Assembly (NCBI GenBank): GCA_030390025.1
Contig: CM059426.1
Coordinates: 5,642,001-5,706,000 of the forward strand
DNA: 64,000 bases
Direction of reading: 5' to 3'
Source: Squalus acanthias
Taxonomy: Eukaryota
The notes beneath the pieces were generated by a model that did not search any database, was not told where the DNA came from, and was given only the letters and a program-made list of their open reading frames with translations. The position numbers were made by a program, and so were the translations under genes. Shown here one piece after another: positions 1,818-55,635 of the stretch (within the stretch, counting starts at the first letter, position 1; each line of letters begins with the position of its first letter).

Positions 1818-2559
1818 ATGAAGATGGAAGCAGCAGAGAAGGCAGACTTCTCTTCCCAGGACGGTCTGGAGGAAGCTGAGGCTTCAACAAAAGGTATTGA
1901 GACAAAAGTTGGTGACACCTGCAAGGAAAATGATGGGTCATTTCAGAAAGAGACCTCAGCAGCCAAATTGAGAAAAGAGGACAATGATCGTCCACCGAAA
2001 CCAAGTGGGCTATCTGCTGAACCTTGTTTGTTGATGGAACTTGGGCAAGACTCTTCTGAATCCCAGCTTCCGTCCGCAGACAGCGATAAGCAAACGCCTG
2101 GCCGCACCTATGATAGTGACTCTTCTAATCAGTGCATGGTTTCCCCTTCTTCCAGTGGTCATTTGGCAGACTCTGACACTCTTTCGTCCGTAGAGGAAAA
2201 TGAGGCACCTCAGGCAAATGTGGCTGTGGACGAGGATCCTTCGGGAGGATCCGGTCCTGCAGTCGGCAGAAAATCACGACGATCCAGGTCTGAGAGTGAA
2301 ACATCAACCATGGCTCCTAAAAAGAACCGCTCATCAAATGACAAGCAAAACGGCCGTGTGTCAAAGGTTAGAACCCAGAAGCAAAAGGAACGGATACGAT
2401 TGCTACGGCAGAAACGTGAAGCAGCAGCTAGGAAGAAGTACACGTTGCTGCAGGACAGCAGTACGAGTGATAGCGACTTGACATGTGACTCCAGCACAAG
2501 TTCATCAGAGGATGAGGTTTCTGGAAATGGCAAGAGGACGATTAGTGCAGAGATTCCAG
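1818..2559 (+). CDS. ARK2N: ARK2N (C18orf25/ARKL1) first coding exon; likely acceptor AG at 1711-1712, ATG 1818, phase-1 donor CAG|GTATTT
   Basis: Translation MKME...PCLLMEL..DSSESQL...[16 protein letters not shown]...[16 protein letters not shown]...[39 protein letters not shown]...AEIP matches human C18orf25 as I recall it. An in-frame TAA at 1737-1739 fixes the start. A polypyrimidine tract precedes 1713. Confidence 0.95.
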
Positions 2560-11653: not shown

Positions 11654-11967
11654 GGTTCCACCAGTGCATCCATCTAACAAACCATATGCAAAAGCCACTT
11701 TTGCCCTCCAACCCACCTGCCACTAACACAAAGCAGTCCTGCAAACAACCAACCCTGCCTTTCACAGTCCCCCATTGCTCGATGTCAATTCATGTCTTCC
11801 CATTCATTATCACACAACTGAAAAGGTCTCTTGCCAGCCAGCAAGCAAGAATGAGCAAGAAGTGAAAGTGGTGCAAAACAATCATATTTATGTGGCTCAC
11901 ATATAAAACAGAAACTTAACATTCTAACAATGTGTAACTCATCCTTGTGCAACTACAAATCTTTACT

Positions 11968-12028
11968 GTGTTTCCAGCATTTTCTGTTGTTATTTCAGAT
12001 TTCCAGCACCTGCAGTATTTTGCTATTG
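11968..12028 (+). mobile_element. 61-bp Penelope-like terminal fragment with a 14-bp TSD
   Basis: Insert matches 53271-53330. Flanked by TACAAATCTTTACT at 11954-11967 and 12029-12042. Confidence 0.8.
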
Positions 12029-15018: not shown

Positions 15019-15190
15019 AATATCAACAAAAGTAAAACTTTTGATCTATTAGTTTGTAAAAAAAAACTTTTGCCTGGTTGGTTCTCAGTCAAGGGAGCAG
15101 GCGTCCGGGGCAAGACTTGATTCTCCAAGACCCAGTTTATGCTTGCTGTTTTAAACTATGGTGTGCTTGTTTCTGCCCCCTTGGCCCTCC

Positions 15191-15580
15191 CACCCTCCCT
15201 ACACCTTCTCAGCCTCCCTACACCTTCACACCCTCCCTACACCTTCACACCCTCCCTACACCTTCACACCCTCCCTACACCTTCACACCCTCCCTACACC
15301 TTCACAGCCTCCCTACACCTTCACAGCCTCCCTACACCTTCACAGCCTCCCTACACCTTCACAGCCTCCCTACACCTTCACAGCCTCCCTACACCTTCAC
15401 ACCCTCCCTACACCTTCACAGCCTCCCTACACCTTCACAGCCTCCCTACACCTTCACACCCTCCCTACACCTTCACAGCCTCCCTACACCTTCACAGCCT
15501 CCCTACACCTTCACAGCCTCCCTACACCTTCACAGCCTCCCTACACCTTCACAGCCTCCCTACACCTTCACAGCCTCCCT
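15191..15580. repeat. 19-bp minisatellite (CCTCCCTACACCTTCACA[G/C]), about 20 copies
   Basis: Directly visible tandem array; explains the three repetitive ORFs at 15078-15646. Confidence 0.97.
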
Positions 15581-15658
15581 CCTTTTTTCCATCTGATATT
15601 TAATTTCATAATTTCTCCTCCATGTCACTACTGCTGCTCAATTTGATTTCTCTTCCTT

Positions 15659-17412: not shown

Positions 17413-19849
17413 ACTTAATGGTGCAAACAACTGAGCCAAGATGACATTTATTAGTCCAATATGTCTCCAAGTCTACAGTACACATACTGTAACAAAAGCT
17501 ATTTTACCCAGGAATTGGAGTTTCTAAAATATATCTGGAGACAGCTGTAGTTTAGTTTGGTCACTTGATTGTAATTTCTGATACATTATACATTTTGATT
17601 AGTATTAAGAGTTTTCTTATCTTCTCTTCCGCTCTCTGGCAAGCTTTTGTGATCAGAGGCACGTTCAATTAAATACTTCTATTTTGGGGTAACACTGAGC
17701 GTTGTACCAGTGTTTTGAAAGTTCAGCTATCTACTGTATTTCTATGAAATTGCTCACGGCACTAATTTAGTGCAGTTGCTAATTCAACTATAGGCATCGT
17801 CATAGTATCAACAACTTGCATTTATGTAGTGCCTTTTAACGCAAGAAATGCCCCGTGGTGCTTCAGAGGTAGGGGTAAGGAAAACTGATGCTGAGCCAGA
17901 TGGGTAGCCTATATGCCAACCTACAAAACTTGGAATTGCTGACACAACCCCAAATAATTAACACCTTAAATAGCATACAACTGAAAATCAGTCCTGAGTG
18001 AAGGCCTGGGACCAATGCCACCGCCTCAAAGAAACTGAATAAGTTAAATTCCTTTGGGATCACATTCCCCAATTCAGTGTAACTGCATGGCCTCATATGG
18101 GAGAGCAAAGGGCATATGAACTTATAACTTGAGCTGCAGCTATACTTAGAAATTCCGTCAGTTTTATTATTGGGGTGGGGTGAACTGAAGTAGACAAAAG
18201 TTGAAATTTATGAATTTGATGCTGGAAAAACTGGGTAAGTACGAGGTGTGTGACGGTGAAGTAGTGGCCAGCATTCCCAGCACTATAACTGAGACCCCAG
18301 ACACTCAGGTTCGTGCTTAGTTTAATTAATTCGTTTATTTATTACCTCTCTGGCATTACTAACCTCCAATTCCAATCGAATCATGAAAAACTAAATTTCT
18401 GTTAAGTAATTCAGGCTTTCAGTGACAAGGACTCGGAGCCGGAGAGTATGTTCCGAACATGTGTAGTGCAGGCAGTCAGCTGCTGAAGATGGTGAGAGGC
18501 TGGAATGATGTGTCTGGAACAGGTACAAAACGGTGGGGTGCAAGAGACACCAGCACTGAGTCTCTCCTGCATACTAAGCTCCTGAATTTGTATAAGGTGT
18601 ATACAAAAAGGTGCATGTAACTTTGGGTGGGCGCTTGGACTTTTGCACATGCATGCACACAAACAACTTTCAAGATATTTTGGAGTGAGACATAGCCTGG
18701 AGTACTGGAGACAACAAAAGTTCAGATTTTAATTTGCAAATGTTGTCATGAGGATCGCACTCCCAAACTGCTAACTGTTGACAACTGTGAAAAGTAAACG
18801 TAGTGTTAAGTAATTTAAGTTTATTATGTCTTTCTCTGTCTACTTAGTCTATAATACTAGGAGAATAGAGATTTAAAACTTTTCAAACAGAAATATATTA
18901 AACAAAATTGGTCTACTGTTTGGCCTAGACAGTCAGCCAGAATGTGCAGGACCAAGATTCTTTATGGCACTGACATGATCTGTTGGAAATCTTCATAGCT
19001 GCCAACATTCCAAACTCGACCCACAGGAACCCCAGGGCCCAATTAATGCTCCATAATGCATTACTCACTCTTAGCTCTCACTGAAACATGGTGCATGCAT
19101 AGAAGAGATGGCTCAACTTTGTAGAATGGTGAACATGGGGTGGGGGGGGCGGGGGGACTGTGCGAGTGGTGCAAGTAGAGGGCCAAAACGTGGGGTTGTC
19201 AAATATGCACATGAGTAGAATGGAATGACGAGCTTGACCATCTTGTGTTAATTCACTGAATATCAGAGTATGTCACAGTTCATAAACTTAAAAAAAAAGG
19301 AACAAAATGTTGATTGGTTTGTGCACCATTTCCCGCCATCATGGAACCATGAAATGAGCAGCTGTTGCTTGTGACTGGAACCACAGCAACAAAGGTGAGT
19401 GCCTTTAAAAATGTCCCACTATATGACAGTAGGTACACGGCCTTTTGGTGACCTAAGGTAAGGGTCATGTGAGAGGGGTACATAGGGAGGGTAGGAAGAC
19501 TTTAGTTAGCAAGGTCAAGCCTTTTGAAAATTTTGAGGTTCCCCAAGCTAAAGATAAAATCCCCTGTATTGCTCGTGCTCTACATATTTCATTAACTGAA
19601 CAAAAGATGATGTACTTGAGGTGGGAAGAGGGGGCGGGGTTCTTGTCTATTATGAGTCTCCTTAATATAGAAAAAGGTACCCAGCTCCAGTCGAATAACT
19701 TTCTAGGGGCTGTGTGGGGGAGGATCAACAAAACCACAATCTGCTATATTTGAAACCTAAAGACAGAATTGTGGTCCAGTGTGTTGGCTATGAAAATTGA
19801 CTAAAACTTACTCTAGTTGATTTATGTGCTGCGCTATACACTAAGTTTA

Positions 19850-20290
19850 TTGAAAGATTGAACTGGCTGGGGCTCGTTTCTCTAGAAAAGACGAGACTGA
19901 GGCATGACCTGATGGAAATCTTAAAGTTTATGAAAGGGTTTGATAGGGTAGATGTAGAGAAGAGGTTTCCACTTGCGGGCGAGACCAGAACTAGGGGCCA
20001 TAAATATAAGATAGTCACAAATAAATCTAATGGAGAATTCAGGAGTAACTTCTTTACCCAGAGAGTGGTTAGAATGTGGAACTCGCTACCACAAGGAGTA
20101 GTTGAAGCGAATAGCATAGATGCATTTAAGGAGAAGCCAGATAAGCACATGAGGGAGAAAGGAATAGAAGGATATGTTGATGGGGTTAGATGAAGAAGGG
20201 TGGGAGGAGGCTCGTGTGGAGCATAAACACCTGCATGAATCTGTTGGACTGAATGGCCTGTTTCTGTGCTGTAAATACTTAGTAATACTT
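19850..20290 (+). mobile_element. CR1 LINE 3' fragment
   Basis: Peptide TRTRGHKYKI...NFFTQRVVRMWNSLPQ; same subfamily as 51240-54115. Confidence 0.9.
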
Positions 20291-20592
20291 TGTAAATAAG
20301 AGGCATTGTGCCTCTTCAAATCATGTTTCTGTGCATGCATGACATCCACATGCGCAGAAGCAGCAAATTGTGAACTCCACGAAATAAGTTATTTTAGAGC
20401 CGAAAACGCAAATTGACAAGGCACTATGTGAATGGAGTGGACACAGGTTAAAAAAGCACGTTGTCTACTCTAAATGCATGTGATTGGCATCTATGGAGTA
20501 GAGTTTTGAGATTTTGAAAAGGAAAAGGGCAAATAGGTTTAGTGAGGGATTTCTTAAGAGCAGTGGCTGAAAGCTCTGCCACCATTGGTGGG

Positions 20593-20730
20593 CATGATGT
20601 GGAGATGCCGGCGTTGGACTGGGGTGGACAAAAATGAGAAGTCGCACAACACCAGGTTATAGTCCAACAGATTTATTTAATTTTACAAGCTTTCGGAGCT
20701 GTTCGCTCCTTCCTCAGGTAGAGTAGCTGT
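20593..20730 (-). mobile_element. Penelope-like pseudo-LTR fragment, same family as 23587-24006
   Basis: Close reverse-complement match to 23880-24006; includes a hammerhead-like core. Confidence 0.75.
20684..20720 (-). ncRNA. Minimal type-I hammerhead ribozyme motif
   Basis: Reverse strand: TAC-CTGAGGA-A-GGAGC-gaaca-GCTCC-GAAA-GC-TT-GTA. Confidence 0.6.
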
Positions 20731-21412
20731 GAGAGAATCTCCCAGAATTCACAACTAAGGGAGAAATGCATAGAAGCTGGAATCAAAGGAACACTGATTG
20801 GGAAGGGTGATACAGCTGGAAGAGATTGCAGGGATAGGGTGAGATAAGGCCATAGAGGGATTTACAGATCATGACAAAAATTCTCATTTAATGCTTCGGG
20901 GGACCAGGAGCAAGTGTAGGATCAGACACATGTGCCAGAGTTTAGGTCAAGTTGGAGTTTATGGAGGGTGTAGGATGGGAGGCCAGCAAGGAGTAGTCAA
21001 GTCAGGAGGTGACAAAGGCATGTACAAGGGTGTCTGCTGTGCTAGAGTTGGAAGTAAGTGGGCTTGGTAATGCAGTGGATTTGAGGTTTAAAGCACAGAG
21101 AGTTGAGCAGGAAGCCAAGATCACAAACAGTCTGGTTTAGCTGAGGAGAGAAATGGAACCACTTGTAAGGGAGACTATGGTTTTGATCCCGTCAATGTTG
21201 AGCATGGGGAAATTGTGTCACATCCAAGACATTTGAATGCTTCGCCAGTGCTCCTCAGTCTTTCTATCCTATGGACCTTTTTTGGTTAGAGTTGGCTGCG
21301 AGCTACTCCCAGGTTTCCACCAACGTTGCTCTAAAATGGGCTGCTAGTTGGTGAGAATACTCTGGGATGACTCTTGGTAAGTGCCTGATCTTGGCATTGG
21401 ACTCCCCCATGG

Positions 21413-21533
21413 CAGCACTGCTGAGATCGGTATGTCAGCACTGCTGAGATCGGTATGTCAGCACTGCTGAGATCGGTATATCAGCACTGCTGAGATCGGT
21501 ATGTCAGCACTGCTGAGATCGGTATGTCAGCAC
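21413..21533. repeat. 23-bp minisatellite (CAGCACTGCTGAGATCGGTATGT), 5.3 copies
   Basis: Directly visible; one substitution among the copies. Confidence 0.97.
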
Positions 21534-21559
21534 CCAGGAGATTTGGAAGAAGAAATGAA

Positions 21560-21835
21560 CATTGCAAGTATTTTACTTATGTCTCAAACATCTCAAAGCG
21601 CTTTCCATGAAATTAATTATTTTGAAGGGCATTAACTGCTATATGCTATATAGGCAAATTTTATGTACAGCAAGACTCCACAAATTAGGTAAATGATCTG
21701 TTTTTGGTAGTGTTGGTTGAGGGAGGAATGTAGAGCAGGACATTGGGATAATTCTCCACTTTTCTTTGAATGATGTCGTGGAACCTTTGTCCACCAGAAC
21801 AGTTTAATGCCTCAGCCAAAGGTATTGCAGTTCAC
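21560..21835 (-). mobile_element. Degenerate Deu-SINE whose head continues at about 23303-23390 beyond the CR1 insertion
   Basis: Similarity to the 5780-6245 copy on both sides of the CR1. Confidence 0.6.
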
Positions 21836-21840
21836 TGTCA

Positions 21841-23302
21841 GCTAATGTTACCCCACTGTTCAAAAAAGGTGGTAAAGAAAAAACGGGGAATTATAGACCA
21901 GTAAGCCTGACATCGGTTGTGGGGAAAATGCTAGAGTCCATTATAAAAGATGTAATAGCAGAGCACTTGGAAAACAGTGACAGGATTGGACAAAGTCAAC
22001 ATGGATTTACAAAAGGTAAATCGTGCTTGACTAATCTACTGGAATTTTTTGAGGATGTAACTGATGGAATAGATAAGGGAGAACCAGTGGATGTGGCGTA
22101 TTTGGACTTTCAGAAGGCTTTCGATAAGGTCCCGCATAAGAGATTAGCGTGTAAAGTTAAGGCACATGGGATTGGGGGCAAGGTACTGACTTGGATAGAG
22201 AACTGGTTGGCAGACAGGAAGCAAAGAGTTGGAATAAACGGGTCTTTTTCCGAGTGGCAGGCAGTGACTAGTGGGGTTCCGCAGGGATCGGTCCTTGGAC
22301 CCTAGCTATTCACTATATATATTAATGATCTAGACGAGTGAACTAGATGTAATATCTCCAGGTTTGCAGATGACACAAAGCTGGGTGGGCGTGTGTGCTG
22401 CGAGGAGGATGCCGAGAAACTCCAGTATGATTTGGACAGGTTGGGTGATTGGGCAGAAGCATGGCAGATGCAGTATAATGTGGATAAATGCGAGGTTATC
22501 CACTTTGGTGGCAAAAACAGAAAGGCAGATTATTATCTGAATGGCAATAGATTGGGAGAAGAGGAAGTGCAACAAGACCTGGGTGTCCTTGTGCACCAGT
22601 CGCTGAAGGTAAGCATGCAGGTGCAGCAGGCGGTTAAGAAGGCAAATGGTATGTTGGCCTTCATAGCGAGAGGGTTTGAGTACAGGAACAAGGATGTCTT
22701 GCTGCAGCTGTACAGGGCCTTGGTGAGACCACACCTTGAGTATTGTGTGCAGTTTTGGTCGCCTTATCTGAGGAAGGATATTCTTGCCATGGAGGGTGTG
22801 CAGCGAAGATTCACCAGACTGATACCTGGGATGGCAGGAATGACGTACGAGGAGAGATTAGGTCGATTGGGCTTATACTTGCTGGAGTTTAGAAGAATGA
22901 GAGGAGATCTCATTGAAACTTATAAACTTATAAAATTCTAACAGGGCTAGACAGACTGGATGCAGGAAGGATGTTCCCGATGGCGGGTGAGTCCAGAACA
23001 AGAGGTCACAGTCTAAAGATAAGGGGTAAGCCATTTAGGACAGAGATGAGGAGGAATTTCTTCACCCAGAGAGTGGTGAACCTGTGGAATTCTCTACCAC
23101 AGAAGGCAGTTGAGGCCAAGTCAGTAAATATATTCAAGAAGGAGTTAGATATATTTCTTAAGGCTAAAGGTATCAAGGGATATGGGGAGAAGGCAGGGAC
23201 AGGGTACTGAGTTTGGATGATCAGCCATGATCTCATCGAATGGCGGAGCAGGCTCGAGGGGCCGAATGGCCTACTCCTGCTCCTATCTTCTATGTTTCTA
23301 TG
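21841..23302 (+). mobile_element. Young 5'-truncated CR1 LINE with a nearly intact RT domain
   Basis: Peptides [51 protein letters not shown] and FADDTKL. Two stops, a short-duplication frameshift near 22920, and a (TTCTATGT) tail. Confidence 0.96.
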
Positions 23303-23586: not shown

Positions 23587-24006
23587 AAAAAATGAGAAGT
23601 CGCACAACACCAGGTTATAGTCCAACAGTTTTATTTAAAATTACGAGCTTTTGGAGCTGCTGCCCCTTCGTCAGGTAAAGGTACAGTGAGGGAATCTATT
23701 ACACAGTATATATACACAGAGAGCAATTTGTCTGCAGAGATACAATCTTTTAGGGAGGCATTACATCAAAGACACATCAGAGTGTGTCTTTGATGTAATG
23801 CCTCCCTAAAAGATTGTATCTCTGCAGACAAATTGCTCTCTGTGTTTATATACTGTGTAATAGATTCCCTCACTGTACCTTTACCTGACGAAGGGGCAGC
23901 AGCTCCGAAAGCTCGTAATTTTAAATAAAACTGTTGGACTATAACCTGGTGTTGTGCGACTTCTCATTTTTGTCCACCCCAGTCCAACACCGGCATCTCC
24001 GCATCA
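23587..24006. mobile_element. Fold-back (inverted pseudo-LTR) insertion, probably Penelope-like, with a 12-bp TSD
   Basis: 189-bp arms at 23588-23776 and 23783-23971 with a 6-nt loop, plus an unpaired 35-nt tail. TTGCTGTATGTA at 23575-23586 and 24007-24018. Confidence 0.8.
23881..23918 (+). ncRNA. Minimal type-I hammerhead ribozyme motif
   Basis: TTAC-CTGACGA-A-GGGGC-agca-GCTCC-GAAA-GC-TC-GTAA: core boxes, stems I and II, and a palindromic AGCT stem III. Confidence 0.65.
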
Positions 24007-25639
24007 TTGCTGTATGTAGGTATAATGCTTCCCCTTCTTGGTGTATATAGGCATAATGCTTCCCCTTCTTGCTTATATAGGCATAATGCTTCCCCCTCTT
24101 GCTGAATATAGGCATAATGCTTCCCCCTCTTGCTGAATATAGGCATAATGCTTCCCCTTCTTGCTGTATATAGGCATAATGCTTCCCCTTCTTGCTGTAT
24201 ATAGGCATAATGCTTCCCCCTCTTGCTGAATATAGGCATAATGCTTCCCCTTCTTGCTGAATATAGGCATAATGCTTCCCCTTCTTGCTGAATATAGGCA
24301 TAATGCTTCCCCTTCTTGCTGTATATAGGCATAATGCTTCCTCCTCTTGCTAGCAGAGATTTTGTTTAATGGCTAAAATGCCTCTGAATCAAGGTACCCA
24401 CCCTGAGCCACCATGTTTTTAGACTTTGTGTTGATGTCTGAGTTTGGTATTTGTAAAATTGCTGAGGTTGTGACTGTTGACACTGCTTTCTAAAACATTT
24501 CAGAAGATTTTTGTTGGCTTGTTTACATATGTATATAAAGTGTTTATTATTTATCGAACTTGAGTGTGCTATTCTATATCTCCGTCTATAAGTTCAGTTT
24601 GAATCGGCTGCTACACTTCTAAATCAACCAATGGCTGCCATATCTTTTCAGAGGTGCAGTTGAGATCTCAGATGTGTTTTTTTTGCTTTGCCTTTCAATA
24701 TTAGGGTTTGGGCATAGCTGCATTCTGGAAGGCTCCTTTTAAATATCCATTTCAAAAAATATATCCTAGCAGAGCACTAATCAAATATTTATTGGCATAT
24801 CTTCAAGGCCTGACCTTTTCCACATGGACCAGAAAAGCAGACAACATTTAGGTATTTCTGACCGTGTGTGATGACAGACTAGTCACATCACCCTTCTCTC
24901 CACAGCTAGCCTTCAGACTGGGTGGCGGGCGCCATCACTGGTTGGACTAAGGAGCGATTCCGTGATAATTTAACTGTAAAGCTGATCAGATTTTGAAGGA
25001 CCGTAACTTGGATTTGTCCATAGATTTGTCTGCCTGCATTTGTGCAGGGACAAAAGTGATAATAGCTGGAAAAGTCTGTTCAGTTGTATGTCACATTGAT
25101 TTATGTAAACTGACGGCCTATTGGGTCCTGATTTTTTTTCACGCCTCAGCGCAGACTAGGAATAAAACCTGGGATCTTATCTACTTAGTTACACACTACA
25201 TTTAGAAAATGAGTCAGCGAGGGAGTGAGATTTTTGGAAATTACTGAGAAAGTTCATTAAATGGAGATTAAACTGGTCTGTTGTTGATTGAATCCCATTT
25301 TGAAATTTTTGCAAAAAAAAATCCTTTTTATTGAATGTTAAGCCCCAGATTTTCCTATCGAAGGCCAAAACCAGTGGTTAGTCCTGGAAGAGAAAGCTTT
25401 ACATTTTTTGATAGCTTGGCCATAATATAAAGGCCAAAGTTTGAGATTTTTTCTGCTTTTTTTTTGTATATTAGGTGGCATAACAGGGTGCAACTGGAGG
25501 CAACTGTAAAGAGGGCAGATGTCTTAGAAATTTGACCCTGCTGATTGCTGGGAACACAGAGGACTTGGAGGAATTGTACCAGTGGGCAAGTCATTGAATA
25601 TCTGTAGCCTAATGCATGCTCTGACAGCCCTGATTCAGC

Positions 25640-25975: not shown

Positions 25976-27750
25976 CCATTGATCTGCTTGGATTTGGACT
26001 GTACTGGGTTCATTAGCAAAAGAGCTGAACCGTTTGAGGTTATCACTCCTAGTACATTTGTCATTCTTATTTGGTTTATTTATCTTAGTTATTCTTTACA
26101 TAAAAATGCTCTGCTTATTTACTTATGTCTCTTGGATTACCATGCCTTATCTCTTGGTAAGAATGTGAGTAAATGGACACAAAGAAGCAACATTATTCTG
26201 TGCAGGAAATGAGATGTAACCCCAGAGCCACTCTTTAAATATGCAAAAAGTGCTCTGACTAGAGGAATAAGACCCCTATTATGGCAAGTTCATGACCGTA
26301 AATAAAATTAGAAACAAAATGAACAATTCTTTACATCCAGCATGCTATGGTGGTAAAGGGGAGCTGAAAGTTGGGGGCTAAGCTCCAGATTGATCTTTCG
26401 GTAATGACCACGAGAAAAAACTATGCAGATTTTAATAGCACAAAATACATCAATAAAAGAATGTGGGGAAAAAAGGCTTGTATTTTTCACCTGCTTTTCT
26501 GTAACTCTGGATGGAACAGTATTTGCTGCAGACAGAGTTGGTGGTTTGATCACTTCTAGTGCTGGATATAAGAAATGTAGTGCATTCTAACTGGCAACTT
26601 CCTGTTACTAGTTTGGAATGCTGACAGGGAATGCAGTCATTGTGGAAGCACACCCATCCTAAACAGGAATGACCGAAGGTGTTTTTTATAGTAAATTCCC
26701 ACCAGTACTAAGATAACTGAAGTCTCTTATCTTAGTTGTATTGTAACTATTTTCGAGGCAGAGTCTTGATCGTATTTTTCAAAACTACTGGTAACATCCA
26801 AATCTTAAAAATCAGCAGATATCCCTTTGCCTGTCCCAGTGGACGGGACAATGTAGCCCCTTGTATGTTTATGCAGTGAGTGTGGAAGTTTGCCATTTGC
26901 TTTTGAGAGTTTAAGGAAACCTGAAGCTGAACTTAAACCACCAAGCTATGTCTGCAGCACATTTCTGTAGTTAATCGATATGGCGCAAATCTAATAAAAC
27001 CTTTAAGAAGTCCCTTGTTTTTTATTCTTGTCTTGGCTTCTACAGTCAGTGCTAAAAATTAGACTCCATGTTATGTGCAGTAGTTAAACATTCTTTCCCT
27101 GTCTGATTGTACTACATTTATAACAAAATAGATGATTCTCAGTACTGATGAAAATGGCTGCTAACATTGATGAGTGGGAAAATGTAGCGAAGTGTTAAAA
27201 CTATGGTTGCTTTTCCCCTACAATTTATTTAATCAAATTTAAAGAGTTTTAAAAAGGCAGTATTCCTTTTGGTAATTTACAAGAGGCTAAAATTCTTAAA
27301 TCTGTATTTTCCTTTCTCAACTTGAAATTATTTTTATTAATGCCATACATAAAAATTGTATTTTGAGGACTAAAGGGAGTGCTATCTAGTAGTTTATGGT
27401 TTTCCCTCTTGGGAGCAAGAAGCCTTCCTCAAATGGAAAAAGGTTTTACTTTTCGAAGAGAGTTATTTCCAGAATCGGTTGATCAATGCAAATTTTGCTT
27501 AACAGGGATTGTATCTAGTATATCTGTAATGTAATTTTTGCTGTTCAAATTCTGACAATAGATTGGGTCTGATCAGCTAACTGTTCACAGAGGAAAAGTG
27601 AATGTAGATTTCTTTAAAAGCAGCTATAATACAAGTCTGTTATGTAGAATTGCTTTTTGATCAGGCTGACTGAAAGGGATCCTGTCTCTTTAAAAGGTAA
27701 AATGGGTGTGTTGTAATCGCTCTTATCAAATGGCCTCAATGTCTTTCAAG

Positions 27751-28214
27751 CTGCCAACAATCGTGCAGAGGGGACTGCAGGCACTGCCGCCCAAATGGCT
27801 GGACTACTGGACAGTGGGATCTCATGGGAGCGGAACTGTATCGGCAATGTCCTGGAGGAAGCAATGAACTGTTTTGCTGAGATGCAGCGGCAGACAGAGG
27901 AGAGATTCCGGATGTGGATGGAAAAGCTGACCCGCTTGGACACTGATGAGGACACAAAACAGCAACCGAATCGACAGGAGCCCAAAATGCCAACAAGGGG
28001 CACACCAATGCCCCCTCCTACTCAACCCAGCACATTTATGCATCTGTCCAGCAACCATTCAAATCCACAACAGTCATATAACCCTTATGTGAACAACCAT
28101 CCAAATGCCGACAGTACTCCAGCATATCAAATGGCTTTCAACAACAATCCGTCAGCTGGTTTTCCGGAGAATGGAAACTCCTCTGGTCATGACCTTAATC
28201 ATTCAAACCTTTAA
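27751..28214 (+). CDS. ARK2N: Candidate alternative terminal coding exon of ARK2N
   Basis: Acceptor tctttcaag|CT joins the phase-1 G of the first exon in frame (GCT). The frame is open to TAA 28212-28214. An in-frame stop at 27714-27716 bounds it upstream, and AATAAA follows at 28611. No TE-like sequence recognised. Confidence 0.75.
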
Positions 28215-28610
28215 ACAGTCAGAAATTGAAATCTTATAATTAAACTCCCAGCCAAACTAGTGTTTTTGTGGGGAGATCTCTTTTAACTAAGATTTCTAAA
28301 CATCATACATGGGCAGCAATGCAGTTTTTGTACACAATGCAGGAACTTCAGTGGCCAGGTTGTTGTTAATCTCAGAATGACTGCTTGAAATATAGAATTT
28401 TAAAGCCAAAAGTCACCGTGATAACTATAACAACCTACCTCTGATTTTACCTTTGGTCACATTGCAGGGCATAAAAACTTTTCTAAATGTTACTGTTCAA
28501 TTGGCGTATTGACTTCATTAATCAAAATTATAATTTTTTAAAATTGTTAAAGTTACAATATCCGTTAAATGAAAACTGTACTTTTACAATTTCAAGTTAC
28601 TTAATATGTT

Positions 28611-28616
28611 AATAAA
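28611..28616 (+). terminator. Candidate poly(A) signal for the alternative terminal exon
   Basis: AATAAA about 400 nt after the TAA, at the end of an AU-rich stretch. Confidence 0.5.
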
Positions 28617-30254
28617 AACACAATTATGTTACAGGTTGGTGCACCCACACACAGTTCTGATTTTGTGCATCTGAGACCATTCTGATTTGCAGGCAGTGAC
28701 CAGTAAAAGCCCAGTGATCATACCTTGTCTGGGTAATGTGTGAGATGGGGGAATGCTTGCCAAAAGATGCAGTTACTGATGCCTCATCTTTGCAAGTATC
28801 CAAAATGACTCCCCTTCCTCTTTACCTCTTCTTCACCCAGCACATCTCTTACCCATCTCCTCTTTCCCCTTCCAACTTCCACTTTTTTCCGGCTCTCCCC
28901 CTCTCCTGTCCCAGCACTTCAAAAAAACATTGCTAGAGTCTTTGTTTTTTTAAATTGGATACTAGAGAAACTACTTTACGTCTGCTGCTGCTAGGGTAAG
29001 AACTGAAAGTACTGATATAAGTTTGAAGCATGTTTATGATGAGACCCCAGTTCCCCCTCTTACTCTTTTCAGTGCAGATAATGGATAGGCAAAGCCTCTG
29101 AAGCCCCCAACACTTGGCACCAGTGCTACTGCGTGCTTGTTTATTTTTCATCTGGACTGCATTTTACATTGAAGCCATTGCACATTACTGAACAAATGTA
29201 GAAAATAATTCCTCTTTTGGGGATGGGACAGTGGAGAAAGACAATATCTATTTTGACTGCATGCCTAACGGTAACAAACGGAAATTGAAAATTGCTCAGT
29301 TCAGAATCTGGGACTATCTTTTTTGGGTTGCACCAGCAGAAATTACCAATTTCAAGTCCACTAAGCCAGTGTTAAAAGTGACACAGTAGTACTGCCATAT
29401 CGTGTTTCTTCTAATGCCATGACACTAACTTGCTGTACAGTGGTAGAAACTGAGCACTGTACATATTTGTCTCAGGTTTAGAACACATTGACCCAATATC
29501 TCCACAATATATTGGTGCAACTTAAACAATCAGTGTCCTTTTGGTACTGAACTGGCCACTTGGGCAATTATATCATTTGCCTTCAAATGCCCAGTATGAT
29601 CCATTTCCTCCCCCCAACCTGTATTGGATATGGGACATCATAGACCATCTGCCCCGGGCCAACTGATCTGAGCGAATCAAGCTTTGAACTGTGTCTCCAG
29701 TCTGCAGACCATATTTTGTTGTTTCCTGCCCCCCATGCCCTGGACATGTTGGTTAAACAGTTGGCCAAAGTTGAGGTCTCATTGCCTGGATCTGGATATC
29801 TATGTGTATACAGTGTATGAAATGGTTTCAACCCAATTGAAATGTATTTTAAGTTGTCCAGATACTTGCATTAACCTTCAATTTTAGATCGTCATCAAGC
29901 AGCAGCAATAGAAATGGACCTGGTAGAGTAGGTGATTAAAGTAAAACTTGAATAAATAAGACTGGATGCCATTAAAGAGGGGCATTTAAAAAAATATAAA
30001 GCTTTTGATTACTGAGACCCTTTGCAAATGAACTATGGATTTCCACCTTTTAGATGGCTTGTGGTATGAGGCTGTAAAAGATAATTGGAAGATATAGATT
30101 ATAAATTTGAGATTTTATGGATAATGTGCTTGTACTTTATTTACATAATCTCAAAATTACTGTTTGCTTGACAAAAATATCCATGTTACGATGCAGAATA
30201 CCCAGGAATGCTTACTTTGCATAGGGATCAAGTTTCATGTAAAGGTGCTCCCCG

Positions 30255-30790
30255 AATACCTCAGTCAGTGAGTTAATTGCCTGGGATGGTACTGACCAGA
30301 AGTATATTGGACTTGATCCCTGGTCTGTGCTGAGATAACTTCTACTTTGAATGGACTTGCAGGTAAGAAATTGATGGCACAAACATTTAAATCATTTAAG
30401 TGACAATTGGAAACCGTGATTGGGAGGTTTTTCTAGATGGATGAGCTAAGATCGACCAAATGGCCTTTAGCTTGTGATCTCAGCTCGGGCAGTAACAGGT
30501 GTTGCAATTGGCAACGCAACACCCCTAGGCTAAGTAGGGGAAAATGATCAGCCAGGCCTCTTGCCCGTGATTGCTGTTCATTGACTCCTTTTAGAAGTGC
30601 ACATGTGAATGTCTGGTAAGGGCAGGATTAGGCTCAGATGTGATGTCTTCCGAGGTTGCCTAGCCTGCTGAAGTTCACCTTTAAGTATCGCATATAAAGA
30701 ATGCCCAATTGAGTGAGGTCCAAGAGAGCTGCCTGTAGACACCTATCCCAGCATGAATTGGTACTTTCAAGAGAAAGAGAAGAAATTCGG
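30255..30790 (+). mobile_element. Old SINE family copy
   Basis: tgatccctggtctgtgctgag...gatctcagctcgggc...ggcaggattaggctcagatgtgatg aligns with the 61315 copy. Confidence 0.6.
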
Positions 30791-33700
30791 AAAGAAAAAC
30801 ACATTTGTTCAAAGGTTGTAAGGGTGAGGGATTAAAAACTTTCAAAAGGTGTATATATCTTTCAGGATATCTAAATTAAAAATCATTTAGGCCACCACTC
30901 CCCCAGTGAAATGGCCGAATTAATATAGTAGATTCACATTATTAGACTATCCTAATGCCAGCGTCATGGGCATAACAAAATAAGTGTATGAATTTTACCC
31001 TTTTATATGTCAGTAGGCCTTTGGTGAATGTGTGCCATTCTGTTAAACAGTTACAATTTAAATAACTGAAAGATTAGGCTTAGTTACATTTAGAATCGCA
31101 ATGAAAGCATGGAGCTTCCATAAATTAGTTTTTTTTTAAAAAGCAACTCAAGGCATGTTCTTTAATCTTCAAATACACTCACAGAAGTAACTTGAAGTTC
31201 AGTATTTCTGTGGTTTATACAAAATGACCACATGTCCAACTGCTTTAGTTTATCCATTGCATGTGCTGATAAACCAAAGTTCAAACTGTGCAAAACAAAA
31301 CCCCTCCCTTTTGGCAATTCTTAGATTTAAACATTAAAAAAAGTAATACAGCTGACACAGGCGATACATAACCATGTTTAATGTTCATTAATAATACAGA
31401 AACATCAGTGTAGATGGATTTCTGCGATGTAATATGGCCCTGAATCACAGCTTTGACCCACTGTATTAACTGTTTGCGCCAGTCTTGGGAGAAGAGGAGA
31501 TGAAGGGAAGGAGACTGCCTGGTATTGGGATTTGGCAATGTCCCATGAGTGAACTCAGGTGGGATATTTGAGTAGTGGAAGAATTTGTAAATCCCACTGA
31601 CAAAAATTCAGGAGGGATGGGGATCTTCTGAAAACTGAGTTGTGCTCCTCCTCATTTTCTGAATTCAAATTTTATGTTGTTACTCAGCCTTCTAAGTTGC
31701 CCTGCCTGTGTTTCATTGTATTGGATAGCTGCTATTCCTAAAGTTCACAGGGACAACTTCGTGGCATAGAGTTTTTTTTACGGTCTTTTGGTCTTTGCTG
31801 TCAAAGCACTATATGTGATTTTGCTGATGACGCTCTGAACTGCTGTTTAACCAAAATGCTTTGGATACCAACTACTGATGTGTTGCTCCAAACATTTACA
31901 TGACTGCTACCAACGGTAAGCTGTGTTTTGACTGTCTTTTCCATCACCAGAAATCCATCTGTAGTTTTGTCTTCATACTGTATTTAGGAAAGTTAAAAGT
32001 TAACAGGGTATTGTGATAAACAGTTCAAATGAAACCTCTCCAAAAGCCTTTTCCCCCCAAATAAAATGTGCAAATGACTCAAATGACATGAAGTATTTCA
32101 ACCATCTTCTTTGCAGATTTATTCATTTTTATGAAATCAGAAATTTTCATGGTACTGTATCAGAAGTGGCTTTCATCGAAACAGTCATGTTTCATGGGCA
32201 GGCAGTTTCGTCTGATGTCTATCCTCTGGAATGGGTTGAATGTGTACATTTTAGGGGGAAGAAACTGTCACTAGTTTTTGTGTATGTGTTGTGTACTAAA
32301 TTTTAAACCATTCACTTACCAGTGATGGAGGGAGGACAGGTACTCCTTAACCCTATCCCTGATTTGACTGCTATTAAAAGTGACTGGGAACATAGCCCTT
32401 GCTGGATTGAATTTTAACCCGTAACTAAATTTGATTCCATGGCCTTTTTCATTGTCGAGGGCTCTTCCTATTGATAGGCAACTAGAGCTCTTAATTGTTT
32501 CCCTTTGTCCCCAGAGTGGTGACGCCTTGGTAGTAGCTAGCTGGCTACTTAACTTGCCAAAAGCAGTGTCATGATGACTCCAATCATTCTTTGTAGTTTG
32601 GACATTGTCGTCTGCTATCATTTTCTTTTGCTCCTTGCTGCCAGCTGTCCAAGCAGTGAGGTTAACGGCAAAGAATCAGATAGCTGCTGGATTTTATTTT
32701 CATTTGAGAACTTTCTGCTGGGAGAGGGGGGAAGAAAAAAAGTAAACTTAGAATGATTTTTTGTAGTGCATGGTTTTTTTTTTAACAACTGTAACAATAT
32801 CATGAGTGGTCATGGTTGGTTGATTGTTTACAGCCCTGTCACCATTACTTTGATTTCAGGGGCTCTCTGATGCTAAACTTAGGACCCAGAATTTATTAGC
32901 TGCTGTTCTAGGTAAGGGATGTCTCACCCCAGAGTGGGGAGAGAAGGTACTGGCAGCATTAGATATCCTCCCTCTTTCTCCTACTCACCAAAGTACAATT
33001 GGAAAGTCGCAGAACAATGTCTGCTTAGTTGTTTTGTATGATTCTGTGTTATGGTGCGATATGCTGTAACATTATGCTACGTGAAAAGTGCCGTCACATA
33101 TGAAGGTTTGTGATGCAAGAAAAATCCAACACCCACCAGTCTGTATAGATCGAGATGCATTCTCCCACCCCCCACCCCCACCCCCGTTCTCCAAGAATTG
33201 TTTTAAATTTCATTCTTCCTCTTGGTTTTGTAGATTTAGCAGTATGTTAGCGATAAAGCAGTCTCTGAAATCTGTGGCTCACTATACGGATGAATGTAAA
33301 GTGTCTCCAAAGATATTCTTGAGCAGTTTCTGAAAAAGCAGCTCAACTAGATCAATGGAGGCGGGGTTTCATCTCTTTACTCTGTTATTGAAGCTGCTAT
33401 TTGCACTGGAACAGTGAGTTATTAGTATTTACACAACTTCTATAGACACTAGTTGTGGACAGTATTTACAGTGCAATTTGCTTTAAGAACAATAAACTCT
33501 GTTTGTACTAGAGGTGGACACAAGTACCAGAACCTGCGATTTGTATTTCTTTTTAAGAGATGGATTTAAACTTGTGCCTTTTTTTTTTGTTTGCATTTTG
33601 ACAATTATCACATCAAACTTTCAAAGCCTTCAATTCCTTTTGTAACACAGAATTTGAGAGGGATTTTTTTTTGCTTGTTTTTTCCTAGTTCTATTTTTGA

Positions 33701-33804
33701 TATGGCTATGACTAGGAACTGATGGCAGCCTCTGGCCCTAACTCCATTCTCATTATTGATTGGCCACTCTTAAGCTCAGAGTTTCGGCATCCCATCAGTT
33801 CAAG

Positions 33805-33885
33805 GAACATAAGAAATAGGAGCTGGAGTAGGCCGTACAGCCCCTTGAGCCTGCTCCGCCATTCAGTAAGATCATGGCTGAACTT
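33805..33885 (-). mobile_element. CR1 3' tail fragment
   Basis: gaacataagaaataggagctggagtaggcc..., matching 13154-13230. Confidence 0.8.
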
Positions 33886-34214
33886 CTACATCAAAACCTG
33901 AGCTGATTTGTGTTGTGGGATGCTCATGGGGAGGAAGGTTGCTTCAGAACTAGAAATTAAGTTAAGTGCATATTAAGGTGAGCATCAATATTGGATCTAA
34001 TCATCATTTTACAATAAGTCTTGCTCCTGAATACATGGGCGACGTGTGTAAAAGATTACAAAACCGATTTTTACAGATTTGATCCACAGGGAGACATGTC
34101 AGTGCACCGACCGGTTGTGTTTCACCTCAAACTTAATGGTCAGCGTTACAGCCTTTAGCTTTTTAAAAAACAAAATTTAAAAAGCCAGAAATTGCAGACA
34201 TTCTTTGTAACGCC

Positions 34215-34450
34215 ACTGACTCTGATCAACATGAAGGGTCCTCACTATCTTGTCCAATATGCCAATTCTTATGCAAGATTTAACGTGCGTGTTGGTAGGC
34301 AATTCAACCTGTTCTTGTCCTCATGCACACTTCCAGTAGGGGTTTCTGGATAATCAGCAGAGGGACCCTGGACAATGTTTCTCCGTCCCACTGTGGTAAA
34401 AGTGAGGTCAGTTTTACCACAGCACAGCTACTCTCTTTAGCTCAAATACT
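34215..34450 (-). mobile_element. Old SINE family copy, degenerate
   Basis: Reverse-complement similarity to the family core (ttccagtaggggtttctggataatcagcagagggaccctgg). Confidence 0.45.
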
Positions 34451-34654
34451 CACTGGTTAAACTCACTGAATCTTCTGTGGGGGGGAGGAGTATTCTTGAA
34501 ACGAGCAGTGTTTCCACGCATCCATGTGAATTGTTAGCTATCAAATGGCATTGTGCAACTCAAGCTAGACGAATGGGATATCTCTTGGAAACCTATGCAC
34601 ATAGAATCTATATTTATCTTTAAAGAAGCACAGTTTTTGTGAAAAACCGGTTTC

Positions 34655-35300
34655 ATGTAGTCATAGAATGTAATTTCAGCCCATTAAGTATGTGCTGATT
34701 TTTTTTGTTTGCTTCTACATGAGCCACCTAGTCTGATCCAACCTTCCTGCTTACTTTTCATATTCCTTGATATTCTTTTTCAAGCAACTATCGAATGCTT
34801 TCACAGTAGAATTTATCGACTCTATCAGCAACTGTTTCGTGCAGAGAATTCCACATTCTAATCACTGTCCTGTGTAATTTTTTTATCACACCCCCTCTTT
34901 TAATTATTTTTATTATCTTAAATTAGTGCCTTTTTTGTTACCATCTTTCCAACCAGTGGAAAACAATCCATCACTATCATAACCATGAACTCTCAACTTT
35001 CTGAACTTAGTGAAAAAAGCCCTAACTTCTCAAATCTCTCTCTTTATAACTAATTCTCTCCTCCATGGTAACATCCTAGTGAATCCATCCTGCACCAGTT
35101 CATTGTCTTAAATGTCCTTCCAATAATGGGTGCCTAAAACTGTACAAAATACTCTCATTGTAGTCTAACTTCTTGTGCACATTTAACATTACCTCATTTA
35201 TTTTATATTCTATGCCTCTATGTACAAAACTGAGGATTCAGTTTGCCTTGGGTACTTGAACCTCAACTTTTATTGACCTATGTATCTGCACTTCTTTACA
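34655..35300 (-). mobile_element. Degenerate CR1 3' fragment
   Basis: catagaat tail, gcagagaattccacattcta (WNSL region), and gtgcctaaaactgtacaaaatactc (EYCVQFW region). Confidence 0.6.
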
Positions 35301-38300
35301 GAAAATTCTGTAGTGCGTTTTTGAAAATTGCATTGAAACGCATCATTGTGCAATTACAAATTAAGTCATTACAAAGAAAATGAAGTCGGGATATTCGCCT
35401 ACCCCTAAACACAGATGTTTGAAGTGAAGGCACTGCCTCTTTTAAGAATGGTTCCAGTTTTCTTCTGCCACCCCCTCCAGTTTTAATTTGTATCAAGACA
35501 ATTCACTAAATGAAAGAAGGGCTCCCCAAATTGTAGGTTAGTTTTTTTAATCATCCAGTCTCCACTGTAGCTAGATTTTGCATCTTGAAGCTTAACCTTA
35601 ATGGAATATTCCTGTGTAAGATCCTACGGTAGTCATCCTTAAGCATTCCTTATCTAAGTACAAGCTGTATGTTTTTTAAAATTAGATTTTAGTTGTTTTT
35701 AATTTAAAGATGGCTGCCTTCTCAGTCCTAAGATATGGTATATCAGTGTCTAATCTCAAGTTGCAGCTTACTAAGGTTAAGAAAGATGTCCCTTACTGAA
35801 TGAAAATTCAGTTCACTTGAGCGGCACCAATTTAGTTCAGATGTAGAGTGAAATTATTTTTGGAATGACTAGGATACTTGTGGTTGGTCTGTAACATTTA
35901 AATAGAGAAAAATTGCAAAGTCATATTTTGATCCACGTCATTTTAATGAGTCAGTAATGGTTTAGATTAACACCCTTGCCTCGCCATCACTTGCATTTGT
36001 GGAAAGTATCGTTGATAACATACCTAACAATAGTACTGAGTTTAGGATAACACTCTCCTCCTTGTTAATGGTTTGCAAAGTGTCAAATAGAGTAAACAAG
36101 TCACTCAACCCATCACAATTTTGGTATAAACTAAGGCTCCTGTGGTTTCAGACCCCAGGATCTTTGCAAGATCACATGTAATGCAGAGGCTCCCAGTAAC
36201 TGACATCCAGGATTGTTGCTTGTGTCCACCTTTACTTTCAAGGGAATTGCTGTTGCAACCCCTTACCTACGTTATGTAACGATATTGTTTACCAAGTACT
36301 GTATTGCCAAAAACCCTGTAAAATCCAGAAGTGTAAAATACTGCAACTTCAATGAAAATAAATTGTTCAAAGAGTAAAAACTCCTTTTGGCTTCTTCACC
36401 TTCTGTTTGTGCTGATGTTTCCAAGAGTGCAAAGCTGTAATGTGCCTGGTGCAATAGCATTTGGTGTGCTGCGAACTAGGAAATGCGATGCACTTCAAGA
36501 CTTAAGGTGGCAAGTGCGGTGCATGGATACTCAAGTTTTGTTTGCTTTAACCTTGAGTATTGCAGTGGAAATTGCTTGCAAGATTAGTAACTTTTAATTT
36601 TTTTTTGGGAGGGGGTGCAGCTCAAGTCGTGTGTAAAATAGCTAATTCCTGTATAATTATTGTCATCAAAGAGACCAAGCAGAATCTATAGGAAATAAGA
36701 CAATTCCTTTGCAAAAGCCTAGGTAATGTTTCTGCTAATGGTGAAGAATAAGAGTAACAGCAAGATCCAGCAGTTAGTGTTTAAGAGCATGGGTTTTCAA
36801 AAATCGACGGATAAATGACTCCTCCAGTCTCCAGCAAATGGGAACTTTTAGATTCGAAAGCTGGAATAAAACACCAGTGGTTAGTGAAGTGTGTGTGGAG
36901 CTGGAATTATTCATGCAGCTTTAGTGCTCTGGAAAGCTGTGTGCATTTTGCAGCTTCCCCTTCCTAATGGCTGATCACATCTGAATCTAAAGAGAAAGCA
37001 GTGGCTACAGGTAGATGCAGTAATCTTTATACTTGCATGCCCATGGTAGTTGAGCCAATAAGGATTTGGATATAATTGCGCAATGTTTACTGATTAACCG
37101 AAGTCTTACATTTTTATTTGATCCATTTTAAGTTTATTGTCATTACCCTGGGCAAGCGTTCTGCTCATAAGCCTCTAGCAGTGCTGCTCATGAGCTGGCT
37201 GCTAGGAACTGCACGAGTACTTTTCTCCCACTCTCCACCATTTCTTACCCTCTCTCCATCCCATCAGCAGCACAGTGGAAATGGAAAATTTTATGTGGGG
37301 ATGCAGTGACCTGCGCCTGTCAAACCACGACTTTTGTGGCTGTTTCCCTCATTTTTAATTCTCTTCGCTCCTTCCGTTGAGGGCAGTGACCTCAGTGAAC
37401 ACTCACAAGGAAGTTGACTATTCCCTCTGGCTCTGTGTCAAGTGCTATAACCAGTGTCTGCTGTTGAGTTGAGATGCATTCTCTCTAATTCCCCCTCATT
37501 GTGTAGTCTTAATGCTTTTGATCAGTGACATTTAGGATTTATCCTTACTTTTTTAGCATCCTGAAATTTTTCAGACATTGTTTTGTATGGAAATGAACTA
37601 ATCCTGGTTAACCAGATTTCATTTATCCCACTCTGAAGACTGATCTTTACACAGACAGGATTTATGACTGAGCTCAGCCATATAGAGGGCCAAAGGGTAT
37701 TTTTTACAGTGGAGATGTTAAAAGAACTTTCATTTATAGGTTATACCTATATAGCCTCCCACAAGTGCGATAAATCTATGTATCATGTGTTAGAGGGGTA
37801 GAAGTTGAGGCATCTTTCAGAAGATGCAACACATGAGCCATTGACATTTTACAACTGTGAACTCTGGCTTTCTATTGTGACCAAACAAATTACAGTAAAA
37901 ATGTGAGTCAAGAACCAAAAGCAAAAGTACATTTATTGTTCATTGTAAAATGAGCAGCACCAAAACACGTGCAAGAAGCAATGTTTTGTTTAAACAGCAT
38001 CTGCTATTGCATCTGGCACAAATCATTTGTAAAAATTATAAAGGTTCCTTGAAATGAAGCATTTTATTGACTTTTAGATCCACCCCTGTATATGTGAGTA
38101 TTAGTCCAAGAAGTTATGTAGAAAGAGGCTTCTTGACATTTCAATTCAGTATTGACTCAGCGAACCCTCTACCTTTTTTCTGTCATAAACCTCATTTATA
38201 TCCTCAAGGAGGCCAATTTATCAAGCTTTATTCTTGCAGTCTATCTATCGCTTGGCTTATTACTGTGAAATCACTTGTACAAGCTGCACCTCTATATAGG

Positions 38301-41007: not shown

Positions 41008-41372
41008 CAGGAAACTCTCTTTTAACCGGCACCCAAATAACCGGAAATCTCTCTTAACCAGCAAAATTCTTGAGTAGGTAACCGGGGTTTTCCTTCATCT
41101 CTCCTCTAAAAATAACTTTAAAAAAAAACCCCGAGGCGTTTGCCTTGTATCGGAGCATGTAGATTGGGAGGGGAATGTGCAGCCCGGGTAGGCAGCGGAC
41201 ACGACAGATGGTCAGCTGGCGGTCCCCGGGGAGACGGAGCTCCGAATGCAGGCGCATGTCAGTGTGTACGGGGCTCTCGTACGTTGGGAGATATAACTCT
41301 CCATTATCCGGACTGTTTGATTAACCGGCACCACGCCGGTCCCGTCGGTGCCGGTTAATAAAGAGTTTCCTG
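41008..41372. mobile_element. Tc1/mariner (pogo/Tigger-like) MITE, 365 bp, with TA target duplication
   Basis: 26-bp TIRs CAGGAAACTCT(C/T)T(T/A)TTAACCGGCACC with TA on both sides; internal TAACCGG repeats. Confidence 0.9.
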
Positions 41373-46179: not shown

Positions 46180-46356
46180 ATGGACCTCCAGTGATAGCAC
46201 ACTATGATATTTCTGACACTAACTCCGACCCAGATGTACTGAACGTCGACAATCTTCTTGCAGCTGCTGCCGTCCAGGAGCAATTCTCTTTCGGACATCA
46301 CGAGTTTAAGGTGAACACGGTTAGGAACCGAGGACTGCTGGAACAATGCGTGGCAG
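46180..46356 (+). CDS. ARK2N: ARK2N internal coding exon (DGPPVIAHYDISDTNSDPDVLNVDNLLAAAAVQE...), 177 nt, phase 1-1
   Basis: Acceptor ttctcag|AT and donor GCAG|GTCAGT. The peptide matches the DGPPVVAHYDMSDTNSDPEVVNVDNLLAAAVVQE block of C18orf25. Confidence 0.95.
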
Positions 46357-50899: not shown

Positions 50900-51026
50900 G
50901 CCAAAAAGAAGAGAACTTCATAGCAGCTGATGGCTCTACAGGTTTCTCTGTACCAGTAAAGGAAGAAATCCAGATTGCATCCTCAGATAGCGAGGTCGAA
51001 ATTGTAGGAGTCCAAGAAGATACAAG
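50900..51026 (+). CDS. ARK2N: ARK2N internal coding exon (GQKEENFIAADGSTGFSVPVKEEIQIASSDSEVEIVGVQEDT), phase 1-2; absent from the ORF track
   Basis: Acceptor ccttgcag|GC and donor AAG|GTACAG. Manual translation contains the conserved IASSDSEVEIVGVQE SIM block. Confidence 0.95.
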
Positions 51027-55436: not shown

Positions 55437-55635
55437 GTGCACTCAGACTAGACCTGGTGTCATTCAGAGCTGTTCAGCATGGAAGCAGAGTTCTCATTCA
55501 TACTGCCTCAGCAGCAGGGCGCAGCAACAGCAAATGCATTCGTGGGCTGCCGTTTCCCAGCCAACCTGGAGTGGGCCGCCGGAGGTTGTTGACCTCACCC
55601 TTGATGAAGACGCTAGACGCAGATACTTGCTGTGA
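55437..55635 (+). CDS. ARK2N: ARK2N last coding exon ending PEVVDLTLDEDARRRYLL*
   Basis: Acceptor aaacag|G completes AGG (Arg). The C-terminus matches C18orf25 (EVVDLTLDEDSRRKYLL). Total CDS is 742+177+127+199=1245 nt, or 414 aa. Confidence 0.95.

Follow-up and report, generated by a model that had tools for sequence, protein, structure and literature searches.

The ARK2N (C18orf25) gene of the shark Squalus acanthias has an alternative last exon that is spliced in frame to the first coding exon, and its product ends in a deeply conserved, predicted helix in place of the SUMO-interacting motifs (SIMs) of the canonical form. That the exon is spliced goes beyond chance, as the junction is present in contigs of all four runs examined and the exon has homologs in 78 clusters of longer proteins. 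In the reading that we favor, to which we assign a probability of about 0.5, the exon removes the SIMs and the helix would dock onto a conserved partner protein, redirecting the CK2-carrying N-terminus. Positions below are those of the window, the whole stretch of 64,000 nucleotides that we analyzed, and the features are collected in Table 1.

The ARK2N locus and its alternative last exon

The gene is identified as ARK2N by its first coding exon, which encodes the Pfam domain RNF111_N (PF15303, E=7.5e-20), and by the SIM exons behind it, where the protein terminates with no RING; PF15303 occurs at two loci in the genome, this one and an RNF111-like one. The nearest annotated relatives are proteins of a sawshark and a sevengill shark, with 96-97% identity over the alternative exon. 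Translation starts at the ATG at 1818, and a phase-1 donor (G/GTATTT) follows 2559. Within the first coding exon, the basic stretch presumably has a nuclear-localization role. The serine-rich acidic stretch beyond it is likely the CK2-beta-binding segment, by analogy with the serine-rich CK2-beta site that excerpts of PMC10542384 give for human ARKL1. The canonical SIM isoform has 414 aa, or 355 aa if the exon at 46180-46356 is skipped, and its C-terminus reads ...VVDLTLDEDARRRYLL before the stop. The bin holding this skippable exon is covered in 4/4 runs and the adjacent intron bins are near zero, the contigs here giving bins and not junctions.

The same N-terminal exon bears, at 2025-2057 (+), a kinase motif whose S67-equivalent serine lies in ELGQDS. 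This form is present in 8 of the 9 cartilaginous-fish proteins checked (the other has no pattern match), and ELRRDS in all five bony vertebrates. The muscle papers describe S67 as an AMPK site, whose basic residues may have been gained only in bony vertebrates, if the equivalence obtained by counting along the possum protein is right.

Table 1. Features of the shark ARK2N locus, in window positions, and the RNF111-like paralog, in genome coordinates
Feature	Position	Strand	Remarks
First coding exon of ARK2N, coding part	1818..2559	+	247 codons + 1 nt; common to all isoforms
Basic stretch of the shared N-terminus, RKSRRSRS to RKK	2268..2438	+	From sequence
Serine-rich acidic stretch	2454..2516	+	From sequence; present in both isoforms
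Intron end before acceptor, weak pyrimidine tract	27730..27750	+	Conserved across vertebrates, untranslated in this shark
Alternative last exon, coding part	27751..28214	+	Isoform residues 248-401 and stop
Near-invariant 39-residue core, isoform W273-D311	27825..27941	+	Predicted single amphipathic helix
ENGN tail motif	28167..28178	+	Exit point of frog models to SIM exons; no GT there in shark
Probable 3' UTR, about 8.2 kb, end approximate	28215..36385	+	Contig cover, with small holes and one repeat inside
AATAAA proposed earlier as poly(A) signal	28611..28616	+	Single contigs of X1, X2 and X3 run through
AATAAA, candidate intermediate poly(A) signal	32060..32065	+	One X2 contig ends at 32059; T-rich downstream
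AATAAA, candidate main poly(A) signal	36357..36362	+	Contig ends at 36366 (X2) and 36362 (X3); T/GT-rich downstream
Competing downstream exon of the SIM isoform, DGPPVIAHY...	46180..46356	+	Skippable in frame
Exon with SIM1 (EVEIV at 50992) and adjoining serine/acidic CK2-type site	50900..51026	+	
Canonical last exon, coding part, with SIM2 (VVDLT at 55585)	55437..55635	+	
RNF111-like paralog	G000:C23:44164429-44226900		N-terminal exon; SIM exons follow near 44210760 and 44226870

The sequence-only reading had described an unbroken 464-nt frame that opens at the first AG behind an in-frame stop and fuses in frame to the phase-1 donor. Both points hold: the AG at 27749-27750 follows the TAA at 27714-27716, the sequence across the fusion is TISAEIP-A-ANNRAEG, the protein counted from the ATG at 1818 has 401 aa, and a TAA at 28212-28214 closes the frame. 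The P/N/S/Q-rich tail that it noted is also present (44/83 residues, 53%), as is the AU-rich tract behind the frame, with 31% GC over the 406 nt past the stop vs 50% in the coding part.

The predicted join of 2559 to 27751 is seen in contigs of each of four runs (X1, X2, X4 and X6, from two studies and two organisms; 4 of 23 listed) over the region 26500-30000; that the runs are RNA is a guess, with none of those listed recorded as such. In all four, a contig has a loose 5' end at 27745 that is identical to window 2530-2553, after which TTCCAG (2554-2559) overlies TTCAAG at the acceptor. Between donor and acceptor 25,191 nt are skipped, and protein and DNA searches of the 3.7-Gb genome each find the exon once, so that a processed DNA copy is an unlikely source; the dispersed copies expected of a transposon fragment, which the sequence-only reading had raised, are not among the genomic matches. 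Contig depths cannot be ranked between runs and give no expression level. Before the acceptor, an in-frame reading GL[NI]VF[KQ] is shared by 15 ORFs in the database that extend into the intron; the shark has an in-frame stop at 27714 and no in-frame ATG upstream of the acceptor.

Among the contig joints listed there is no onward splice from the alternative exon, the contigs running unspliced past its stop, and by inspection the shark exon has no consensus-like phase-1 donor. In the shark, the exon does replace all SIMs, as proposed, since EVEIV and VVDLT lie on excluded downstream exons, and the CK2-type site beside SIM1 is lost as well; as a rule across vertebrates the proposal fails on the frog models described below. 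The new tail has no conserved SIM core ([VIL]x[VIL][VIL] or [VIL][VIL]x[VIL]) common to most tails, with IQLV the commonest, in 22 of 138.

A 3' end near 28630, which had been placed there from the AATAAA just upstream, is not supported, as contig cover goes on to about 36,200-36,450. The hexamer AATAAA is found in 21.5% of random 403-nt stretches drawn from 2600-55000, and its occurrence at 28611 is not beyond chance; this is at most a minor site. The AATAAA at 32060 is crossed by X1 and X4 contigs. Cover ends at 36453, 36366, 36362 and 36199 in X1, X2, X3 and X4, respectively, and then gives way to patchy low values; relative to the AATAAA at 36357, two runs end no more than 5 nt away, one 91 nt beyond, and one 158 nt before it. 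This hexamer is most likely the main poly(A) signal of the helix isoform, for which contig ends are only a hint, and cleavage probably takes place mainly around 36,360-36,385, although contigs cannot fix an end. The likeliest length of the last exon is about 8.6 kb. Short dispersed repeats at about 33820-33900 and 41000-41400 draw thousand-fold contig depth, the former falling inside the probable 3' UTR.

Distribution among jawed vertebrates

The exon matches 78 clusters of longer proteins (from 237 candidates), 77 of them named, all of these being jawed-vertebrate ARK2N/C18orf25 models or hypothetical proteins. They span sharks, rays, chimaera, bichir, sturgeon, gar, bowfin, eels, coelacanth, amphibians, reptiles, birds, echidna, and marsupials. 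The first search suggested absence from most teleosts, which was overturned when a second seed (38 matches from 54 candidates) added salmonids, pike, fugu, cod, killifish, and stickleback, and an HMMER search added cyprinids. No name among the exon matches is that of a lamprey, hagfish, or invertebrate, and we infer that the exon arose in the ARK2N lineage before the split of cartilaginous and bony fish. The encoded protein is deeply conserved from sharks to marsupials, which at the protein level answers the concern about conservation raised in the sequence-only reading.

Although the exon had been called hidden, it is already annotated as an isoform in most jawed vertebrates, and the accompanying suggestion that an uncharacterized predicted isoform might exist elsewhere proved right. 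Automated models list an ARK2N 'isoform X2', as in Heptranchias perlo (XP_067839146.1), Chrysemys picta (XP_005305464.1), Gallus gallus (XP_015132907.1), and Trichosurus vulpecula (XP_036615147.1), with the same junction and the same exon as the shark isoform and mostly about 385-440 aa. These models are uncharacterized, and no Pfam family covers their helix.

Several database models depart from this pattern. A second, diverged ARK2N copy of tarpon ends in the helix exon, and cyprinid isoforms keep the helix and have lost its WDRNC start (P0161, P0162). Models from swallow and chimaera (P0108, P0133) fuse HAUS1 to ARK2N or straight to the helix exon and are probably annotation chimeras of adjacent genes; we considered an origin from HAUS1 and rejected it, as the HAUS1 match to P0133 stems from a gene model into which the neighboring gene is fused.

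Among 179 helix-bearing proteins, 171 lack SIM motifs and eight have them. Four of the eight are frog proteins (Discoglossus, Ascaphus, Pelodytes, and Pyxicephalus) with an identical PEN-DGPP junction, which also occurs in Xenopus laevis and a second Ascaphus record, making five frog genera overall; the remaining four are 'hypothetical protein' models whose junctions differ and which may be artefacts. The motif [EQD]NGN is present in 147 of the 171 SIM-less helix proteins, and the frog models use the exon as a composite one, probably leaving it through a GT inside the ENGN motif. Because helix and SIMs coexist in these models, the exon is not only an off-switch.

Placental mammals are absent from the named exon matches, with 15 of the 196 members of the largest cluster among the matches listed, and monotremes and marsupials are represented by 13 entries in three clusters. 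Two short proteins (P0158 and P0166) contain decayed helix copies on a tetrapod-type background, and in both the reading frame appears to be lost within the helix or behind it. Common to the two are I>T, N>S, and A>S changes and a one-residue deletion, found in none of 175 intact sequences, as would fit a pseudo-exon that descends from a single ancestor. When both decayed copies were used to scan metagenomes, 202 pattern matches resulted, with none confirmed. From these comparisons, loss or decay of the helix exon in placental mammals is likely, if short of proven; word-seeded searches miss diverged copies, as they did those of teleosts, and the claim is to be taken with corresponding caution.

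The predicted helix and its possible roles

The near-invariant core is the most conserved part of the isoform. Between shark and possum it is 92% identical vs 65% for the shared N-terminus, and core identity exceeds that of the N-terminus in 7/7 comparisons (97/76, 92/60, 92/67, 92/65, 92/62, 74/54, and 59/47%). AlphaFold, with 22 sequences, predicts one helix over exon residues 29-68, with pLDDT of 92-98 over residues 31-60 and low-confidence flanks (mean pLDDT 58.8), consistent with a helix of about 40 residues between disordered flanks. The segment had been described as an amphipathic or coiled-coil helix; a single amphipathic helix is indeed predicted, but its periodicity is not best matched by a leucine-zipper coiled coil of the classical type. 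The hydrophobic moment peaks at 100 degrees (p=0.001 against shuffles) and is lower, with p=0.013, at 102.9 degrees; at the heptad angle vs 100 degrees it is 0.41 vs 0.50 in one calculation and 0.36 vs 0.42 in another. The best heptad register, GLMFQTFWLL, puts G, Q, and T in core places.

After exclusion of 10 broken, partial, or chimeric rows, 13/35 helix positions are invariant among 41 distinct gap-free variants. On the helix wheel, variation is centered near 349 degrees and hydrophobicity near 136 degrees (p=0.003, 20,000 shuffles), with the qualification that shuffle p-values overstate independence because the variants are related by descent. Variable positions thus tend to face away from the hydrophobic side, a pattern that suggests selection acting on a surface of the protein. 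Exon residues E35, E49, and E50 are invariant and R46 and R53 nearly so, all of them flanking the hydrophobic face, and two Phe and one Trp are fixed in the helix; these fixed charges and aromatics would amount to more constraint than self-pairing usually needs.

Searches for relatives of the helix gave no Pfam family (best RhoGEF, E=0.073), no relative in the PDB by sequence (best E=2.3), no Foldseek match in the PDB, for which a lone helix is a poor query, and no usable match in the ESM Atlas (best 0.75). Blank family and structure searches do not prove novelty. With HMMER, 1.84 billion protein representatives yielded 17 matches, 16 of ARK2N type and one a repetitive artefact.

In the mechanism that we propose, the first coding exon is joined to the alternative last exon with both SIM exons dropped, the step shown by the contigs. 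The exon would be chosen at its weak, conserved 3' splice site and the transcript cleaved about 8.6 kb downstream. The helix would then serve as a docking surface that folds on binding a conserved partner protein, and the isoform would keep CK2-beta binding without SUMO or PML-body targeting, so that the CK2-carrying N-terminus is redirected away from SUMO-rich PML bodies. Interactors reported for C18ORF25 include JUN and JUND, which would be candidate partners. Excerpts of PMC10542384 report that, in human cells, the ARKL1 SIMs mediate binding of SUMOylated RNF111 and location to PML bodies, that CK2-beta binds the serine stretch, and that CK2 phosphorylates S328 beside SIM1. As the N-terminus is kept and both SIMs are dropped, we read the helix isoform as part of a retargeting switch, which would equip a CK2 scaffold with a SUMO anchor or a helix anchor, or in frogs with both.

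Self-association, the idea of the sequence-only reading with its geometry modified, is the main competitor to docking. The helix could pair with itself as a straight or right-handed coiled coil (3-4-4, hendecad-type), making the isoform an oligomeric CK2 scaffold, and the single long predicted helix, the 3-4-4 rhythm of hydrophobic exon residues (30, 33/34, 37/38, 41, 44, 48, 52, 55/56, and 59), and a best hydrophobic period of 99-101 degrees would all suit such an arrangement. However, the heptad angle fits worse, Q and T occupy core-facing positions, invariance reaches the flanking charged residues, and no coiled-coil relative emerged among the 1.84 billion representatives. We favor docking for the constraint on aromatics and flanking charges and for a period that is not heptad-like, and regard self-association as unlikely, though worth keeping in view. 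A less probable alternative, which we doubt, is that the exon mainly ends the transcript early, yielding less SIM-bearing ARK2N and a SIM-less CK2-beta competitor, and is conserved for RNA-level (splicing) reasons. The conserved intron end before the acceptor and the room for regulation in a long 3' UTR would agree with this, as would the reported activity of the N-terminus alone; according to excerpts of PMC11181095, CSB is bound by the N-terminal part of ARKL1 on its own, in an assay for which the SIMs seem not to be needed, although the role of the N-terminus in TC-NER is disputed in excerpts of PMC11789047. Yet the substitutions in the helix are conservative (K/R, M/I, M/V/L, and E/D) and track its face, which RNA constraint would not be expected to produce, the frog models keep helix and SIMs together, and Rfam has no family in 26000-38000.

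A further alternative concerns descent only and is compatible with docking, oligomer, and RNA-level readings alike: that the exon was exapted from part of a transposon protein, such as the coiled-coil end of a Harbinger Myb-like protein, or is a remnant shared with the paralog RNF111. The exon may bear some resemblance to such a Harbinger end, and a Harbinger-type transposase fragment sits in the same intron. But there are no dispersed copies beside the one genomic match, 16 of the 17 HMMER matches are of ARK2N type, and a nearby 427-aa ORF has no match to the exon (E=0.51); the matching shark RNF111 intron, inside 80 kb, scores no more than 8.5 bits vs 120 for the control. Given the copy count, HMMER, ORF, and RNF111-intron comparisons, we rejected both origins as unsupported and consider either of them very improbable. 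Since the matching RNF111 intron has no detectable helix exon, the module looks specific to ARK2N.

The window has other repeat-like content. A DDE_Tnp_4 transposase fragment at 11254-11604 (+; E=1.4e-13) faces a 428-codon open frame without Pfam match at 11995-13281 (-), a layout that we take to recall a Harbinger element with a second gene; a search of 9500-14500 gave no terminal inverted repeat with an exact match of 12 bases. Open frames at 5003-5416, 19800-22941, and 51337-52275 presumably correspond to LINE reverse-transcriptase fragments, and two tandem arrays (15100-15650 and 23939-24365) give repeated translations in several frames.

Significance and relation to known systems

Work on ARK2N in human cells and mice has treated it as a scaffold linked to CK2 and SUMO that acts in PML bodies, DNA repair, and muscle, and its most conserved part in other jawed vertebrates is a module that human and mouse models probably lack. 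If so, knockouts and expression data from zebrafish, Xenopus, and chicken mix two or three proteins of different targeting. The isoform itself is already in automated annotation; none of the titles and abstract openings searched deals with the exon, the helix, or the loss of it, most subscription papers being outside the coverage of this search, and these appear to be undescribed in the literature. A wider proposal, which we advance tentatively, is that an undescribed orphan helix, near-frozen since the split of sharks and bony vertebrates, directs CK2 to a partner independent of SUMO in fish, amphibians, reptiles, birds, monotremes, and marsupials and was lost as a placental pseudo-exon. If true, functional work in human and mouse has missed one of two ancestral ARK2N outputs, the helix would be a ready bait for the conserved partner, and its decay would mark a domain loss specific to placentals that can be dated.

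Among the closest known systems is human and mouse ARK2N/ARKL1/C18ORF25 in its two-SIM form, which, in the excerpted reports (PMC10542384, PMC11181095, and 10.1101/2023.10.30.564812), shares RNF111_N and the serine-rich stretch with the shark protein. The canonical 414-aa shark isoform likewise has both SIM-type motifs, whereas the helix exon removes them together with the CK2-type site; the word 'isoform' has no occurrence in the main texts of PMC10542384 and PMC11181095. Arkadia/RNF111 and the split Arkadia-2 locus (Ark2N and Ark2C/RNF165) have a paralogous N-terminal exon followed by SIM exons, and poly(A) sites cut the Ark2 locus into separate modules, according to excerpts of PMC3627648.

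More generally, the arrangement in the shark is of a common kind, that of alternative last exons. Together with composite (internal/terminal) exons, these form a general class that arises by intronic polyadenylation. As in that class, a terminal exon that is otherwise skipped lies in an intron and swaps the C-terminus, with composite use in the frog models; unlike the class, the ARK2N tail neither truncates nor duplicates the normal C-terminus; it is a module unrelated to it and conserved above the rest of the protein.
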